DNA of 39,671 nucleotides from a virus (Duplodnaviria > Caudoviricetes): the IMG/VR virus record IMGVR_UViG_3300030372_003590, positions 1 to 39,671 of that record. One strand, given 5' to 3'. Below, piece by piece: positions 701 through 39,671 of the stretch. A program made the position numbers and the translations under genes. The notes beneath the pieces are model-generated. The model was not told the DNA's origin, did not search any database, and was given only the letters and a program-made list of their open reading frames with translations. The stretch's first letter is position 1, and the number at the start of each line of letters is the position of its first letter.

Positions 701-714
701 TTTTAAATCTCCTC

Positions 715-954
715 TTATTTTAACTGTGTTCTGTACTCGTTCGCTGCATGTTCTACAGTGACAGCAATCCACGCTAGCAATTCTTCGCACTTGCTACCAC
801 CTAAGCCTCTTAATAGATCCCACGTTTGACCGTCGAAAACTCTTTCTTCATCAGATCCGATCAGCTCTTCTTGTAATGTTTGAATAATAAAATCACCAAC
901 ATCACCAAGTTCACCAGAAAACTCAAAATCCTTATTCCAATTATTAACACTCAT
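715..954 (-). CDS. Acidic hypothetical protein specific to cassette copy A
   Basis: ORF track; SD AAGGA upstream; tight packing with neighbours. Confidence 0.75.
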   Translation of the reverse strand: MSVNNWNKDFEFSGELGDVGDFIIQTLQEELIGSDEERVFDGQTWDLLRGLGGSKCEELLAWIAVTVEHAANEYRTQLK

Positions 955-975
955 TTTCTCAATCCTTTCTTTATT

Positions 976-1034
976 CGTAGCGTGTTAGTGTTTGCTACGC
1001 GCAAGCCATCAAAGTGTTAACCTTGATCGCTCGC
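976..1034 (-). promoter_or_regulatory. Tandem RNA hairpins in the leader of the early cassette
   Basis: Minus strand GCGAGCGAUCAAGG/CUUUGAUGGCUUGC (two G-U pairs, one mismatch) followed by CGUAGC/GCUACG, just 5' of the RBS. Confidence 0.6.
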
Positions 1035-1046
1035 TCGTATGAAATA

Positions 1047-1184
1047 CTAATTTTCTATTATTTCTCTTTCTATTTCTCCAATCCATTCATAAGTGTTTAA
1101 TGTGTTTAGAGTTCTTATATCTAAATCAATTCCTTGATAGTCTTCATCTCTCCGTACACCTGCATTTTCTGATTTTTTAGACAT
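1047..1184 (-). CDS. Small hypothetical protein (45 aa, MSKKSENAGVRRDEDYQG...)
   Basis: Manual translation; ATG directly follows the upstream stop codon. Confidence 0.6.
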   Translation of the reverse strand: MSKKSENAGVRRDEDYQGIDLDIRTLNTLNTYEWIGEIEREIIEN

Positions 1185-1430
1185 TTACTTGATCTCTCTT
1201 TCCAAATTTTGAATAATTTCTTGATACGCAATCAATTGCTCTTGGTCTAATTGTGTAAATCTTGTTTTTATAATCCTCCTCATAGTTTTTAATAATTCTT
1301 TATGTGTCATGTGTTGAATCAAATCTATATGAAATTCCGTCTCGTTTTGCACTCCTACTTCTTGGCTATATTCGATATCAAAAATATCTTTTCTAATACT
1401 TGTTAATACTATGTTTTGTACTGTTTTCAT
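1185..1430 (-). CDS. Hypothetical early protein
   Basis: ORF track; purine-rich RBS. Confidence 0.75.
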   Translation of the reverse strand: MKTVQNIVLTSIRKDIFDIEYSQEVGVQNETEFHIDLIQHMTHKELLKTMRRIIKTRFTQLDQEQLIAYQEIIQNLEREIK

Positions 1431-1453
1431 TTTCTTCTCTTTTCTTGGTGTTT

Positions 1454-1858
1454 CTAAAATTTAGGGATATAACAAGCCTGACCGATTGTGTTATATACCG
1501 TATCTATTGGTTGATCAATTTCTTTAAGTTTTGATGCTTCATAGAGATAAATTTGCACTCCACGCGGATCGCGTTGAATGTAAAAATCAAAATGTGACTG
1601 TTTTTGTATGGACTCTATAATCGCAACTGCTCGACTAACTCCATCTTCTAAAAATTTAGTAAAATTTCCGAGCTCGTCGAATTGTGCATACTCTCCATCA
1701 TCACTTACTTGTATAGTTCCATTACATTCTGCAGTGAACCAAACATTAAGAATCTCATCAATTTCTGCTAATGTTTTATAATTGTCTCTTGTAATCTCAA
1801 ACCTTGATCTTGCTCTCTCTGCATCTTGGTCAAATCGTTCTAACTCTCTTGCGTTCAT
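1454..1858 (-). CDS. Conserved-type phage hypothetical protein (QRDPRG motif), first early gene
   Basis: Start moved to ATG 1858 because the promoter lies at 1921-1950; xDPRG motif seen in small phage proteins. Confidence 0.75.
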   Translation of the reverse strand: MNARELERFDQDAERARSRFEITRDNYKTLAEIDEILNVWFTAECNGTIQVSDDGEYAQFDELGNFTKFLEDGVSRAVAIIESIQKQSHFDFYIQRDPRGVQIYLYEASKLKEIDQPIDTVYNTIGQACYIPKF

Positions 1859-1920
1859 TGTCTTCTCTTTTCTTACTTGGTGACTGGCTTTGCTTGTTGC
1901 GTACCAGTGACCATGGATAA

Positions 1921-1950
1921 ATACTAACATTATAAAAAAAATAGATGCAA
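1921..1950 (-). promoter_or_regulatory. Sigma70-type early promoter TTGCAT-18-TAGTAT with TGn extension
   Basis: Motif spacing read directly; AT-rich upstream region. Confidence 0.55.
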
Positions 1951-2099
1951 ATAATTTGTACTATAAATTTCGCCAGTGTTTATAAGGGTTTTTGAAAATT
2001 CTTAAAAAAACTTTTCCTCATTATGTAAAGTAATTTTGAATATCAGATAAAAAAATCGAACAAACCACAAAGAATAATAGATTGATCTACTACATATAT

Positions 2100-2420
2100 A
2101 CGTATGAACAGATACAACTAATAAAGGCAGTAAATAAGGTAGTAAATAAGATTGATTGAATAGGCTATATATAGAGACATTGTAGAGCTGATTTGATTAG
2201 CTGATATTAGGTGTTGATGTGCGCATATATTAGGTGCATATATTAGCTGCTGTTTTTGGTGCTGATTTTGGTACTAAAATACCTACTTATTAGCTGGCTA
2301 GATACGCGCGTAGTTGACACATTATTGACCTAGTTACTTGACACATTATTTATTGTTGACATAACAGAGCCAAAAATACCACCAGAGCCACCACAAGAGC
2401 CATACAAGCCAAAAACCAAA
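2100..2420. repeat. Non-coding cluster of short direct repeats between the divergent arms (possible packaging/terminus region)
   Basis: AGTAAATAAG x2 (2129, 2141), GCATATATTAG x2 (2223, 2236), TTGACACATTATT x2 (2314, 2338), AGAGCC x3 (2366, 2384, 2396). Confidence 0.7.
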
Positions 2421-2589
2421 GGAATAAAAAGCTCTATGCTGACCCAGGATAGGCACACTGAGAACGCATACAATCGCTCTCATGCAATAATGTAGAGGGT
2501 AGGGGCGAAAAGGCGGCAAAAACACCGAATTGTTTGGAGGAGCAGTTAGCGATAAATACTCGTAAGCCGATATCATGTTATCCAAGAGC

Positions 2590-2618
2590 TTGACAAGATT
2601 GCTGTTGCGTCTGATAAT
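2590..2618 (+). promoter_or_regulatory. Promoter TTGACA-17-GATAAT for the packaging/structural arm; probably leaderless
   Basis: -10 box ends 8 nt before ATG 2627 and no SD is present. Confidence 0.65.
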
Positions 2619-2626
2619 CGACAACT

Positions 2627-3100
2627 ATGGACACAGAAATACAAGCATTAGTAGACCAGTTAGATCCAGAGCGTGATTATGGGGAGTTTAGCTACCATGA
2701 GATAGTAGATGGTTGTTTGGATGGGCGGTTTGTTATTAAACCTGGTGACCCTGTACCTGTTTTACGAAATAAAGGAAAATCGATGAAGGGTACTGGGCGT
2801 ACATTGGAGTTGGCAAAGCCGCGTGAACGTAAACATTTTGTAACACGATTTGAAGAATACGCGACAAATGATTTTGAAGTAGCGTATAATTCACTTATGG
2901 ATTTGGTAAAGAAGCGTGACGTTAAGGCTGTCATGTACTTTATGGATCGAGTAATGGGTAAGCCTAGAGAAACGAGGGATGTAGCGAGTTCAGAGATGAT
3001 GGCTACATTTATCGCATCTTTAGCTGGTACTCGAATGGCCCAAGTAGAGCAGCCAGAGCCGAAAGTGATTATTGATGCAACGGACTACCGAGAGGCCTGA
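2627..3100 (+). CDS. terS: Probable terminase small subunit
   Basis: Position upstream of terL; DVKAVMYFMDRVMGKP resembles the DUF5681/TerS-type C-terminal helix. Confidence 0.6.
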   Translation: MDTEIQALVDQLDPERDYGEFSYHEIVDGCLDGRFVIKPGDPVPVLRNKGKSMKGTGRTLELAKPRERKHFVTRFEEYATNDFEVAYNSLMDLVKKRDVKAVMYFMDRVMGKPRETRDVASSEMMATFIASLAGTRMAQVEQPEPKVIIDATDYREA

Positions 3101-29311: not shown

Positions 29312-29697
29312 GGTTTACAACTCCACGGTCTCCAGCTTCTTCCAGCTTCTAAGTAAATAATGTAAGCTGCAGTTAAATTCTCCGCGCCATTATATAAATT
29401 GAAGGTATTATGTAATCTTGGGTGGTAATCTTTCCTCACCTGCATGTAGCCCAAAGCCAACTGATTGTCGCCTGTAGCATACCAGCGCAAACTTGACTCG
29501 CAAAATGCAACTGACTCTACTTTGTGATACATGTAGCTTGGCCAGGGGCTATTTAAGTACGCTTCTTGGAACAAAATGTACCGTTCTTGCATGTATTCTG
29601 GCATGTCTGAACGTGCCTCAGCATTACTTTGCGGAAAAAACGCCCATACGAGGCTTACAATGGCTATGAGCAAAAAAAGAGGGATACTGCGCTTCAC
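29308..29697 (-). CDS. Secreted lysozyme-like lytic transglycosylase
   Basis: CES catalytic motif, GYMQV, N..AA..IY, W.PWSC; GTG 29697 gives a signal peptide MKRSIPLFLLIAIVSLVWAFF..AEA. Start uncertain. Confidence 0.75.
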   Translation of the reverse strand: MKRSIPLFLLIAIVSLVWAFFPQSNAEARSDMPEYMQERYILFQEAYLNSPWPSYMYHKVESVAFCESSLRWYATGDNQLALGYMQVRKDYHPRLHNTFNLYNGAENLTAAYIIYLEAGRSWRPWSCKP

Positions 29698-33006: not shown

Positions 33007-33350
33007 CGCATCGTACTGCCTAATTCACTCGAAAAGCTAGTTTGCACCAATTTTCCTGAATTTAGACCTTCTGTAAGCGACGTATGAGCGTTTTTTCCCT
33101 CGTCACTATACTTAGGTATTGCCAATTCTTCGGTTGGTAAGGAGTAATGTACAAGACTATTACCTGATGGTTGCTTTACAAGTGTGCGTACTAGTTTTCC
33201 TTCTTCTGCTAATCTTCTTGCCGTTCTATCTGCTGAAGTGCCTAGCCAGCCCCACGGCGTTTGTCTCTTTTGAAGATCGTAACTTGGTACTGATTCTGGG
33301 TGTCGCGCCTCTACGACATTCAATACAATTTTCTTTTGTGTGAATTTCAT
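33003..33350 (-). CDS. Winged-helix-like DNA-binding protein
   Basis: Strong SD AAGGAGG before ATG 33350; SADRTARRLAEEGKL helix plus wing. Confidence 0.65.
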   Translation of the reverse strand: MKFTQKKIVLNVVEARHPESVPSYDLQKRQTPWGWLGTSADRTARRLAEEGKLVRTLVKQPSGNSLVHYSLPTEELAIPKYSDEGKNAHTSLTEGLNSGKLVQTSFSSELGSTMR

Positions 33351-36346: not shown

Positions 36347-36712
36347 TCATTGCTTATGTTCAACGCTTTCAAGGCTACTAGCCCTGAGTGAATTATCCCT
36401 CTCCAAGAGTAGGAAGTTATTTTTCGTCAAACTCTCAATGTGCCACCAAAAGCGAACCGCTTCAGAGACGTCAATTTTAAGGGGCTTATTATTTTGCATA
36501 CAGCCTTCAATGTTTTCTTTAATACCCACCTTGTTCTTGCAGTAACCATAGGTATTTTCTTTATCGTAATAGTTGAACATTCCTTCCCATTTCTCCAAAT
36601 TCTCATCGAGTAAATTTGGGTCATCATTATTGCTCAAAGCCTCATAACAATTAGGACATTCAATCAACATTTTCATTGTATAAACATCATGCAAACTAGC
36701 TTTTTGTATCAC
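36347..36712 (-). CDS. Zinc-binding hypothetical protein (CPNC)
   Basis: Start moved to GTG 36712 because the track start overlaps the -10 box. Confidence 0.6.
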   Translation of the reverse strand: MIQKASLHDVYTMKMLIECPNCYEALSNNDDPNLLDENLEKWEGMFNYYDKENTYGYCKNKVGIKENIEGCMQNNKPLKIDVSEAVRFWWHIESLTKNNFLLLERDNSLRASSLESVEHKQ

Positions 36713-36758
36713 TACAATACCTTTCTCATTAGCTGACCTCTCTGTCAACCTTGTATTC

Positions 36759-36788
36759 ACTATAACATAATACCTTATACCTTGTCAA
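36759..36788 (-). promoter_or_regulatory. Promoter TTGACA-18-TATAGT with TGn extension
   Basis: Near consensus; A-tract upstream. Confidence 0.7.
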
Positions 36789-36838
36789 GGGGGTAAATCA
36801 ATTTATTTTATTTTTTTTCTGACGTTATGTAAACTAAA

Positions 36839-37045
36839 CTAGAACATTTGTTCTAAAAACTTAGTTTTGCAATTTTCGTGAATATAAAATGTCACTTTCA
36901 CATCTGATAATTTTAATTGCCCCTCAATCAAATTATTCTCTTTTTTACAAACCACACAAGATTTATGCCCCTCGATTACAATCTTTCTTCTCTTATTAAT
37001 AAAGATGCTATCTAGCTTATTCAAACCAATTTCAGCTGACCGCAT
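36839..37045 (-). CDS. Small zinc-finger hypothetical protein
   Basis: CVVC...HENC motif. Confidence 0.6.
   Translation of the reverse strand: MRSAEIGLNKLDSIFINKRRKIVIEGHKSCVVCKKENNLIEGQLKLSDVKVTFYIHENCKTKFLEQMF
36840..36855. promoter_or_regulatory. LexA-like operator TAGAAC-ATTT-GTTCTA
   Basis: Palindrome matching GAAC-N4-GTTC; ~50 bp upstream of a -35 box; overlaps a stop codon. Confidence 0.5.
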
Positions 37046-37755
37046 GACAATCTTTCTTGTGCAATTTCTATATAATCTTTTGATATTTCTGAGCCTATAT
37101 ATTTTCGATTAAGATTTTGACAAGCAACAGCAGTAGAGCCAGATCCCATGAATGGATCGTAAACTATTTGATTTTCTTCAGTAAAATTTGTAAGAATTTT
37201 TTCCACTAAAGAAACAGGAAAGCTTGCTTTGTGTTTGCTTTTCTTTTCTGATCCTAGTTCCCATAAATTATCTAAAGTTCCGCGTTCAAATTTTGGATTT
37301 GAGAACATGCGACTAATCGCATCATTTTTATCAAAAACTAATATAAATTCATATCTACTATTCATAACTCCTTTTTGCATTGCTGGTTGCGCTTTTAGTT
37401 TATCCCAAACAATCATTTCTTTAAGGTATTCTGAAAACTCGCCTATCATTTTAAATAATGATCGCTTGCTACCAGTAACTAATTGAATGTTATAAAACAC
37501 TAATGGCGATACTCGTAAAAGTTCCCTTAAAACTGATGAATGAAATTCATTGTATTTTTCAATAGGAATATTATCTTTAAATTCATTGTCGTATTTTGTG
37601 CTAAATTCTTTGACAATTTGTCTAGATGTATATTCACCATTTCTAATACGAAGATTCATGTTATAAGGTGGAGAAGTAATAACTAAATCCACCGTATTAT
37701 CCTCCATGCGCTTTAATGTATCTATGCATGATTCATTGTAAATAGTATTAGCCAT
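37021..37755 (-). CDS. DNA N4-cytosine/N6-adenine methyltransferase (beta class)
   Basis: DLVITSPPY, H.ASFP, DPFMGSGST, IGSEIS motifs. Confidence 0.93.
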   Translation of the reverse strand: MANTIYNESCIDTLKRMEDNTVDLVITSPPYNMNLRIRNGEYTSRQIVKEFSTKYDNEFKDNIPIEKYNEFHSSVLRELLRVSPLVFYNIQLVTGSKRSLFKMIGEFSEYLKEMIVWDKLKAQPAMQKGVMNSRYEFILVFDKNDAISRMFSNPKFERGTLDNLWELGSEKKSKHKASFPVSLVEKILTNFTEENQIVYDPFMGSGSTAVACQNLNRKYIGSEISKDYIEIAQERLSCGQLKLV

Positions 37756-37758
37756 TTT

Positions 37759-37956
37759 CTATCCTCCTTTTGATAATTCTGCTGTTCCTACTTTATTGCC
37801 ATTACTATCTCTCAAATACATATCACTTTCTTCTATATCCATTTCAACATCAAAATCTACTAATCGAAGTGCTTGTTTTAAAATCCTTTCTACTTCAAAA
37901 AGCGGATCATCTGCAAAAGAATCATTATCCAAGTCAATATTAATATTCAAATTCAT
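37759..37956 (-). CDS. Small acidic conserved-type phage protein
   Basis: DNDSF..EV.RIL..LRDSNGNKVG motif. Confidence 0.8.
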   Translation of the reverse strand: MNLNINIDLDNDSFADDPLFEVERILKQALRLVDFDVEMDIEESDMYLRDSNGNKVGTAELSKGG

Positions 37957-38171
37957 ATCTGAAACTCTACTCCCTTAAGAATGTCCCTAACCCTCTCTCT
38001 ATCGACGCTATCACCACCAGCCCAAGTGTCATAATTTCTTTTATATTCATCTGTTGCTTGTATGATTCTTTCGCGTGTTAATCCCTCGATTGGATAAAGC
38101 CCATTTTCAGAATCATAGAAATCAAACATACATTTTATAAAAAATTCGAGTTCATCTTTTGCTAATTCCAT
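37953..38171 (-). CDS. Small hypothetical protein
   Basis: GGDSVDRERVRDI motif; SD present. Confidence 0.75.
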   Translation of the reverse strand: MELAKDELEFFIKCMFDFYDSENGLYPIEGLTRERIIQATDEYKRNYDTWAGGDSVDRERVRDILKGVEFQI

Positions 38172-38187
38172 TTTTAGATCCTCTCTC

Positions 38188-38406
38188 CTAAAATGTTAAC
38201 TTTTCTTCAGAAACTTTTACCGCGTCGACGCCCTCTAACCATTTATTAATATGTTTAGATGTTGTGACGGAATAAAACTGATCACTTCTCACATATCCGA
38301 TTTCTGGTAAGTATCCTGCTACTGGTGTTTCATAGCTGAAAAAAATTACCGTTCCATCTTCATGATCAATTTGTGTTTGATTACTTCCAATTACTTTAAC
38401 TTTCAT
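38188..38406 (-). CDS. Small conserved-type phage protein
   Basis: FSYETPVA...YSVTTSKHINKWL motif. Confidence 0.8.
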   Translation of the reverse strand: MKVKVIGSNQTQIDHEDGTVIFFSYETPVAGYLPEIGYVRSDQFYSVTTSKHINKWLEGVDAVKVSEEKLTF

Positions 38407-38475
38407 TTTCTTAACCTCTCTTTTAAAAATCCTATTATTACCTATAACATACTATTTATCATTTGTCAAGCATAA

Positions 38476-38504
38476 AGATTATTTTTATTCTAACTTCATG
38501 TCAA
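38476..38504 (-). promoter_or_regulatory. Promoter TTGACA-17-TAATCT (a second TTGACA at 38464-38469)
   Basis: Motif spacing in an AT-rich gap. Confidence 0.6.
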
Positions 38505-38506
38505 CA

Positions 38507-38520
38507 AGAACAAATGTTCT
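38507..38520. promoter_or_regulatory. LexA-like operator AGAAC-AAAT-GTTCT
   Basis: Palindrome 2 bp from a -35 box; exact reverse complement of 36841-36854. Confidence 0.6.
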
Positions 38521-38527
38521 ATTTTAC

Positions 38528-38641
38528 CTAACGCTGTTTTTCCTCCTCTCTTTTATAAAATTCTTTGATATCTTTGTGCGATTGCCATAAAAAGCATGTC
38601 GCGCCGATTAACATTATTGATAAAACTATCCAAAAAACCAT
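38528..38641 (-). CDS. Small membrane protein (37 aa)
   Basis: Manual translation MVFWIVLSIMLIGATCFLWQSHKDIKEFYKREEEKQR. Confidence 0.7.
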   Translation of the reverse strand: MVFWIVLSIMLIGATCFLWQSHKDIKEFYKREEEKQR

Positions 38642-38643
38642 TT

Positions 38644-38781
38644 TTAAATTTCCTCTTTTTCTATAAATTTATAATCATTTAAATCTGTATCGTATCCTAA
38701 TAATTCTAATAAAAACTCCTTTGCATTTTCGATATCGTCGAATATTTCGCCCTCAAAACAGTCCTCAATAATTACACTCAT
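38644..38781 (-). CDS. Small acidic protein (45 aa), paralog of 102-239
   Basis: Frame conserved between copies. Confidence 0.75.
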   Translation of the reverse strand: MSVIIEDCFEGEIFDDIENAKEFLLELLGYDTDLNDYKFIEKEEI

Positions 38782-38786
38782 TTTTC

Positions 38787-39233
38787 TTAATCCCTCCCGT
38801 ATAGGTCATCTTTATAATGTTCTAAAAATGATTGATACTCGGCTTCAAAATCATCATCAATAACTACTGTTTCTCCATCGAGCAAATGATCTGCTAGTTC
38901 GTCATTGTCAATTTTTGCATATTTAAACCTTATCCCTAAGGCATAAGCGCAATCACAATCGATTAACTCATCTTCGCCAGCAGAAAATAATTGATCGTGA
39001 TCTTTATCCTCACATAAACTGTATGCTTCATCTTGCCAAATTTGCATATCTGCGATTAAAAACTGTTCTATTTCGTGGCTATCCGTACCGACTGCGATCG
39101 TGCATGGATCGTTGAGTCCAAATCTTACAAATCCGATAAAAAATTCCCTCTCTTTTGTGTCCATTTGCATATCAAGAAATCTGATAACTTCTTGTTTTTC
39201 TGCTTCGTACGCTTGCCCGTATTTATAAACCAT
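38787..39233 (-). CDS. Acidic early protein, allele B (148 aa)
   Basis: SD AAGGAG; paralog of 245-700. Confidence 0.85.
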   Translation of the reverse strand: MVYKYGQAYEAEKQEVIRFLDMQMDTKEREFFIGFVRFGLNDPCTIAVGTDSHEIEQFLIADMQIWQDEAYSLCEDKDHDQLFSAGEDELIDCDCAYALGIRFKYAKIDNDELADHLLDGETVVIDDDFEAEYQSFLEHYKDDLYGRD

Positions 39234-39252
39234 TTTCTAACTCTCCTTAGTA

Positions 39253-39328
39253 CTTGGCTATCTCGTCAGGTGATGCAAGCCAAAATGCACCACTACAAGC
39301 GACCCTATAAAGGGTCGCAGGTTTCGAC
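39253..39328 (-). ncRNA. Type II hammerhead ribozyme with pseudoknot
   Basis: GUC-GAAA-C[stem III GCGACCCU/AGGGUCGC]-GUA-[stem I GUGGUGCA/UGCAUCAC]-CUGACGA-GAU; loop I UUUGGCU pairs with the 3' AGCCAAG. Confidence 0.92.
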
Positions 39329-39607
39329 TTATTTTAAGATGCTTTTTTGATTGACGGATTTATAGCCCTTGACCTTTATTTGTGCCAGCTTCACCGCCCC
39401 ACCTGCTACTTGATTCCATTCGACGAAGTGCGGAACAGATTTCGTTAACTCGTTCTCTAGGTAAACTCGTAAATCTTCCGAGGTGAACTCTTCTACCTCG
39501 TCAATTTCACCAGCTGAAACGATGTAAACATGTTCCACTTTTACCATGAAAGTATTAGGAACTTTTGTACCATCTTCTAAAATTACATCTCCATAATTCA
39601 TAATCAA
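39329..39607 (-). CDS. Hypothetical protein specific to cassette copy B
   Basis: ORF track; ATG likely at 39601 after AGAGAGG. Confidence 0.75.
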   Translation of the reverse strand: MIMNYGDVILEDGTKVPNTFMVKVEHVYIVSAGEIDEVEEFTSEDLRVYLENELTKSVPHFVEWNQVAGGAVKLAQIKVKGYKSVNQKSILK

Positions 39608-39671
39608 TTCCTCTCTTTATTCGTAGCGTGTTAGTGTTTGCTACGCGCAAGCCATCAAAGTGTTAACCTTG

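Follow-up and report, generated by a model that had tools for sequence, protein, structure and literature searches.

The stretch of DNA analyzed here (the window) is the whole of a 39.7-kb virus record, 39,671 bases, found in marine metagenomes and encoding a terminase, an endolysin, a resolvase, a primase-like protein, and a methyltransferase. None of the samples listed as containing it is an RNA sample, a result that says nothing about expression. Its replication region contains a 27-nt inverted repeat (29633-29659 / 33072-33098; 89% complementary, 3.4 kb apart). Beside the packaging module lie small minus-strand genes, for which no PHROG or Pfam family was found. The two ends of the window, 1-1025 and 38543-39671, match at both extremities and differ in the middle, where each carries its own version, termed A and B, respectively, of a swappable gene. 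The features of this region are as follows.

701-954, minus strand: version A, a 79-aa gene unrelated to the 90-aa gene, plus a 14-nt junction without ribozyme
958-1049, minus strand: folded intergenic element upstream of the swappable gene in both versions, cut off in B at 39609-39671
38787-39233, minus strand: 148-aa acidic gene, first of the predicted 3' product; no Pfam or PHROG family
39234-39252, minus strand: Shine-Dalgarno (SD) sequence AAGGAG and spacer, the likely downstream exchange border of a module
39253-39328, minus strand: type II hammerhead ribozyme motif (whole, 76 nt), from sequence, folding, descriptor scan, covariation, and a model built without kin
39329-39601, minus strand: 90-aa gene, version B, with the ribozyme behind its stop; seven homolog clusters at 76-91%, representing more than 130 contig records
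39351-39368, minus strand: coding stretch of the 90-aa gene able to pair with the ribozyme core and tail; a possible inhibitory fold and a weak lead

The 90-aa protein has no Pfam, PHROG, or Atlas family. Neither it nor the 148-aa protein has relatives in viral contigs, the species genomes, from which near-identical records may be absent, contain no relative of the 90-aa protein and no prophage with its gene, and GenBank phages gave short chance matches only. A promoter scan ahead of the operon found no consensus site; we infer that the operon is early from its position and from the ArdC-type first gene of kin operons. A metagenome scan for the 90-aa gene returned five loci, one of which (L129; 29% identity over residues 13-76, no motif) was removed as spurious. 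Of the remaining four, L125 is the same phage, while L126-L128 have a different backbone and another gene downstream of the ribozyme.

Several observations bear on the relationship between versions A and B. In sequencing run X1, possibly the source sample, one contig passes from 39236 to 39609 via 259 other letters, forming an assembly bubble in which depth falls from 14.4 and 15 on the flanks to 5.1 on the B branch and to 6.3 and 5.4 on the A branches, with the limit that contig depth is not copy number. Independently, version B in L125 runs into the flanking sequence that lies ahead of A in the window (959-2669, 99.8%). These branch and flank depths and the L125 junction make it most likely that A and B are alternative alleles at a single locus in a mixed population, and on the same two grounds a cassette duplicated in tandem was rejected as the main reading. 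An earlier note on this DNA had described the ribozyme as present in only one cassette version and the equivalent junction in A (701-714) as 14 nt without a ribozyme; both statements are correct, with the amendment that the versions are most likely alleles rather than two copies per genome. The contigs of run X2 contain the A junction plus the start of the B gene; those of X3 contain the A gene start plus B-type pieces of the downstream gene, unbridged; and those of X6 contain a third sequence at both borders of the slot. All three leave 39284-39547 uncovered, a gap that carries no weight. Taken with X1, these contig patterns indicate that the slot is variable in the population.

The apparent diverged terminal repeat of the record is likely an assembly path across both alleles, in which case the true genome is ∼1 kb shorter than 39,671 bases. 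The acidic-gene alleles (245-700 and 38787-39233) have common ends and a divergent middle (66% identity), and their homologs mix segments, which suggests intragenic recombination.

The motif that separates the 90-aa and 148-aa genes in allele B is arranged along the minus strand as listed.

39331-39329, minus strand: stop codon TAA of the upstream 90-aa gene, from sequence
39328-39326, minus strand: stem II 5' strand GUC, partner GAU at 39262-39260
39325-39322, minus strand: core GAAA, from sequence
39321, minus strand: C15.2, from sequence
39295-39325, minus strand: GAAA core with the A15.1-U16.1 and C-G pairs and the stem III hairpin, from folding and covariation
39318-39311 / 39306-39299, minus strand: stem III, GCGACCCU / AGGGUCGC, 8 bp plus a 2x2 CU/UU internal loop
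39296-39294, minus strand: NUH triplet GUA, predicted cut between 39294 and 39293 (descriptor scan)
39293-39286 / 39277-39270, minus strand: stem I, 8 bp, 4 of 8 pairs covarying
39285-39278, minus strand: loop I, UUUUGGCU, from sequence; pairs with the 3' tail
39269-39263, minus strand: catalytic core CUGACGA, invariant in six of six aligned kin
39262-39260, minus strand: stem II 3' strand GAU, from sequence
39259-39253, minus strand: 3' tail AGCCAAG, pseudoknot with loop I, seven possible pairs; 3 of 6 counted covary

All bases of the hammerhead core (C3 U4 G5 A6 N7 G8 A9 and G12 A13 A14 A15.1) are present at 39328-39253, GUA is an NUH triplet, and A15.1-U16.1 and 15.2-16.2 (C-G) are paired in all five distinct rows of the kin alignment described below. 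Three helices surround this core. Stems I and III are predicted by folding; stem II is weak in nested folding and paired in all rows, with 100% of the GUC/GAU cells paired across the five distinct kin. The order of elements, GUC-GAAA-III-GUA-I-CUGACGA-GAU, with stems I and III closed by loops and stem II open, is that of a type II hammerhead, and the loop I/3'-tail pseudoknot has at least the four pairs by which the type is recognized (Perreault 2011). The earlier note had placed a complete type II core, an 8-bp stem I, and a 7-bp loop I/tail pseudoknot on this strand, ending just before the SD of 38787-39233, and each lies where it was claimed, the SD and spacer occupying 39234-39252. Its placement of the motif on the base after the upstream stop also stands, whereas its start for the upstream gene (TTG, 39607) does not: the start is most likely the ATG at 39601, as MNYG opens seven of seven homologs.

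A descriptor scan of both strands of the window gave one type II hammerhead match, with the predicted cut at 39294/39293, the same site that had been proposed before. Among 200 dinucleotide shuffles, none matched the strict descriptor (stem I of at least 8, stem II of at least 3 pairs), and the loose descriptor matched a mean of 0.24 times per shuffle. The folding z score for stems I and III together is -4.17, with 0 of 200 shuffles equally stable. Neither the descriptor nor the model scans found a second hammerhead in the window.

To place the motif among others, its core pattern was run over a quarter of IMG/VR, giving 121 stretches (∼500 estimated in all) and 138 distinct matches, 131 of which fold as type II hammerheads. 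An upstream stop lies no more than 10 nt away in 106 of these 131 scan motifs (no more than 1 nt in 71), against 6.8% of random positions, so the striking placement of the window ribozyme is the rule among phage hammerheads. An SD and start follow within 40 nt in 98 of 131, a pseudoknot of at least five pairs is possible in 71, with 19.5 expected, and the triplet is GUC in 101 and GUA in 28. After clustering (n = 50), the corresponding counts are 35 for a stop within 10 nt, 23 for a stop within 1 nt, 37 for SD and start, and 30 for the pseudoknot. One IMG/VR contig (L063:1492-3894) carries six type II hammerheads, ∼400-530 nt apart, one between each gene.

Rfam does not recognize the motif as a member of its hammerhead families. 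No hammerhead was returned from the whole window at the gathering score or from 38400-39671 (∼1.3 kb) at E ≤ 10, and RF02276 had no match over the whole record. In a scan of 111 nt, RF02276 (Hammerhead_II) was the best family, at 17.7 bits and E 0.14 with stems misaligned, which is below its gathering cut-off of 37 bits. The earlier note had named the lack of a match to hammerhead covariance models as grounds for rejection, and as far as Rfam goes there is no match above cut-off. The close kin motifs in L126-L128 are likewise missed by RF02276; neighboring motifs in L126 and L127 pass it, with 48.9 and 42.8 bits. We consider the Rfam miss to be outweighed, because a hammerhead is supported both by covariation and by a model from which close kin were excluded. 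This model, R2, was built from 31 of the 131 scan motifs, all unrelated phage hammerheads, and scores the window motif at 25.9 bits (E ∼2e-4) as the sole window match at E ≤ 1, and the kin motifs at 32-42 bits; the test is partly circular, because the training set was chosen by a pattern from the window's own core. Rfam thus overlooks this hammerhead subfamily, which Dataset S1 of Perreault 2011 could already contain.

The covariation set comprises six copies, five of them distinct, with the pseudoknot written in. The core is invariant in all six, and 90.9% of cells pair, compared with 32-41% in slid controls. Both partners change in 4 of 8 pairs of stem I, in 3 of 6 of the pseudoknot, and in two of stem III, so the covariation among related phages that had been suggested as a check is present in all three elements; the covarying rows form two sequence types, so these changes may represent few events. 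In L126, and also in the second copies of L126 and L128, all bases of the stem III internal loop pair. An invariant core together with compensated stems and pseudoknot indicates that selection acts on the RNA fold.

These data also bear on whether the motif might be no ribozyme at all, instead being a terminator-like or chance pair of hairpins. Its score below the Rfam cut-off is in keeping with such a reading, as is the UUGU that follows the stem III hairpin. However, no intrinsic terminator (a GC-rich hairpin followed by a U run) is found on the minus strand in 36500-39671, L126 has AA where the window has UU, every core base is present and invariant, and the pseudoknot covaries. We therefore regard a non-ribozyme as highly improbable. 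The motif is real and very likely an active ribozyme, cleavage being a prediction, and its assignment as a type II hammerhead with a loop I/tail pseudoknot is supported by sequence, covariation, and the 31-motif model.

The ribozyme begins at +1 after the stop of the 90-aa gene in four of four homolog loci (L125-L128), which bears out the proposal that it travels with its upstream gene. Between the window and L126, the stretch of gene plus ribozyme is 90.9% identical over 395 nt, compared with 75.6% over 303 nt for the terminase gene, and homology of the module to its kin begins and ends at the ribosome-binding site (RBS) spacers; together these point to recent exchange of the module. With the association seen at all four loci, three of them on another backbone, it is likely that gene, ribozyme, and RBS are transferred together as a single module. 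The ribozyme is not confined to the 90-aa gene, since near-identical copies also follow an unrelated 63-aa gene in L126 and L128. The ribozyme thus appears to be inherited with the gene that precedes it rather than with the gene that follows.

The analyzed stretches of L126, L127, and L128 contain four, three, and three motifs, respectively. In L126:2392-3868 (four hammerheads) and L127:1962-3352 (three), the operon begins with an ArdC-type gene and ends with a terminator-like hairpin, and gene order is shuffled between the two arrays. A variant in which positions 10.1 and 11.1 are both U and stem II is displaced, missed by Rfam, occurs on the plus strand at L126:2912-2986, L127:2482-2556, and L128:22-96, and at L126:3555-3590 a stop codon is followed by GTCGAAA only, resembling the stump of a deleted ribozyme. 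The copies at L127:3271-3352 and L128:381-460 follow the 90-aa gene, yet their stem I and tail match the copy after the 63-aa gene, and they look recombined.

G001, the closest near-complete relative (96% terminase identity, 97% complete), has neither the 90-aa gene nor the motif. No hammerhead was found in the stretches analyzed from 15 terminase relatives, the four closest of which end before the small-gene operon, or in five whole records, a search in which only G001 is more than 90% complete and which had no positive control. A kin-specific ribozyme pattern matched 0 stretches in viral contigs.

The distribution and mosaic structure of these copies would fit a neutral cut, with the motif a hitch-hiker or a shared sequence for recombinational shuffling of early genes. 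Allele A and G001 do without the motif, and the L127 and L128 copies look recombined: in the L127 ribozyme a 5' half resembling that of the window is fused to the flank found downstream of the second copy, and the L128 ribozyme behind the 90-aa gene has the stem I type of the copy after the 63-aa gene. We judge this improbable. The invariant core and the compensated stems and pseudoknot argue for selection on the fold, and the module borders sit at the RBS spacers, outside the ribozyme, which argues against shuffling at the ribozyme itself.

The slot before the 90-aa gene, where L126 and L128 have a hammerhead, is occupied in the window by the folded element at 958-1049. This element (folding z = -5.41) forms a long hairpin with 1x1 loops and has an alternative second hairpin of near-equal energy, with UAACAC in both loops. 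It is complete in L125, and X6 has one changed base at its loop edge. An Rfam scan of the element gave no match, and pattern searches gave 0 matches, then four with only the 18-mer, the rest of the fold being absent. Twister, pistol, hatchet, twister-sister, and HDV ribozymes were compared with the element by eye, using their consensus models, and did not fit. The element may serve as a site for RNase III or for protein binding, or it may be a cleaving RNA of an undescribed type.

Nested folding of the hammerhead region prefers structures that block the core, with P(stem II) of 0.00-0.02 in the window when the pseudoknot is omitted, as these programs do. In a 171-nt context the minimum free energy is 10 kcal/mol below that of the fold constrained to be active, with the pseudoknot uncounted (its duplex is worth -7.7). 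These core-blocking folds weigh against a simple model of constitutive cleavage. A rival reading is a translation-gated ribozyme, in which the last codons of the 90-aa gene (39351-39368) would pair with core and tail in naked RNA, and cutting would need the passage of a ribosome and then its departure. The anti-core duplex has -14.3 kcal/mol, a value that random coding segments reach in 0.8% of cases and synonymous versions in 2.3%; L127 retains the pairing against a different tail (1.6% and 0.2%) and L126 does so in part (2.4% and 7.4%). Gating would account for the lasting association of gene and ribozyme, and the 71 scan motifs beginning within 1 nt of a stop count in its favor. However, the pairing is absent in L128 (66% and 49%), it was found after viewing a fold, its three positive cases share ancestry, and pseudoknots lie outside the folding model. 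Among the scan motifs, 6 of 106 reach p ≤ 0.05 (median p 0.49), as do 5 of 38 cluster representatives (median p 0.44). With no clear excess in unrelated motifs, the idea that upstream sequence generally pairs with the core was rejected. We consider gating by translation rather unlikely for the window ribozyme, and the composite idea of a portable gene-ribozyme-RBS module that is gated in this way and swapped in and out of one slot within one population is equally doubtful.

We favor, as the probable reading, a ribozyme that cuts the polycistron between the 90-aa and 148-aa genes and forms with its gene and RBS a portable, accessory boundary. It is accessory in that allele A and the closest near-complete relative do without it. 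In the proposed mechanism, the transcribed tail would pair with loop I, bringing stems I and II to dock, and the 2'-OH of A39294 would attack the next phosphate, as expected from established hammerhead chemistry. The upstream mRNA would then end in the stem III hairpin (-16.6 kcal/mol by folding) and a 2',3'-cyclic phosphate, and the downstream mRNA would have a 5'-OH carried by the stem I hairpin, leaving 60 nt ahead of the AUG and the SD open. Folding indicates that loop I can still pair with the tail on the downstream product. The SD is predicted to be open, with equal accessibility, before and after cleavage, so no gain in translation is predicted and the likely gain lies in mRNA ends and decay. 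The cut would separate the decay and translation of the two halves, the module acting as a portable boundary whatever gene follows, and its likely job would be to split the polycistron into separately capped mRNAs. Exchange would likely take place at the short RBS sequences bordering the module.

The direction of any effect of the new 5' end is a separate matter. RNases E, J, and Y favor 5'-monophosphate ends (PMC10939160), RNase E is also able to cut without one (PMC2948425), and cleavage of glmS leads to degradation (PMC6765202); the sign of the 5'-OH effect thus depends on the host. An active ribozyme could lower expression, either because the 5'-OH product decays fast, as with glmS in Bacillus, or because downstream translation is uncoupled, and allele B would then yield less of the 148-aa and following proteins. 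For this outcome, which we hold to be unlikely, glmS cleavage followed by degradation (PMC6765202) is a precedent. The predicted 3' product, with an 8-bp hairpin at its start, a possible pseudoknot, and a strong open SD, argues against fast decay, and the L126 operon, with its four motifs, would pay a high price if every cut eliminated the message downstream of it.

The locus bears on why hammerheads sit between phage genes, since it offers a natural allele pair, with and without ribozyme, before the same downstream gene. It falls short of a controlled experiment, since the upstream gene also differs and phage and host are uncultured; the pair can thus guide reporter tests rather than settle the purpose of the hammerhead.

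In phage T7, RNase III cuts the early polycistron between small genes at folded sites just before the SD. The window motif likewise lies between small genes and just before an SD; the T7 cuts are made by a host enzyme that leaves a 5'-phosphate and a 3'-OH, whereas a hammerhead is protein-free and leaves a 5'-OH and a cyclic phosphate. The theta (HDV-like) ribozymes of gut phages (PMC10879173) are also small self-cleaving RNAs in phage genomes, but they have another fold and act in tRNA processing, while the window motif lies between protein genes.

The closest known relatives are the type II hammerheads with a loop I/tail pseudoknot, defined by Perreault 2011 (PMC3088659). In that paper, hammerhead clusters flank variable prophage genes, such arrays are shown to self-cleave both in vitro and in E. 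coli, activity is seen for 14 of the 18 consensus hammerheads that were assayed, and processing into gene-length mRNAs is proposed for the arrays. Elsewhere, bacterial ribozymes are reported to cluster near certain genes (PMC5737381), and the roles of bacterial hammerheads are called “largely elusive” and their purpose undefined, with polycistron processing only suggested (PMC6765202). The window motif shares with the type II hammerheads of RF02276 and Perreault 2011 their permutation, the CUGAnGA/GAAA/NUH core, a short stem II, and a pseudoknot of at least four pairs, as well as a position between phage genes, clustering in kin, and variable neighboring genes. It has the triplet GUA in place of the commoner GUC, and, unlike RF02276, an unbroken 8-bp stem I and a long stem III, which that model misaligns. 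L126 and L127, with four and three motifs, resemble the ardA-adjacent prophage clusters of Agrobacterium tumefaciens and Legionella described there (PMC3088659); unlike those clusters, the kin operons start with an ArdC-type gene, and the operon of the window has no identified ard gene. Unlike the systems of Perreault 2011, the window motif occurs once, and alleles within one phage population differ in whether they carry it. In the literature covered, mainly non-subscription, nothing was found on alleles that differ by the presence of a ribozyme, or on gating by translation, in phages. The RNA type, its architecture, and its intergenic setting are already known, and what this locus adds to them is the allele pair and the gene-ribozyme-RBS module.
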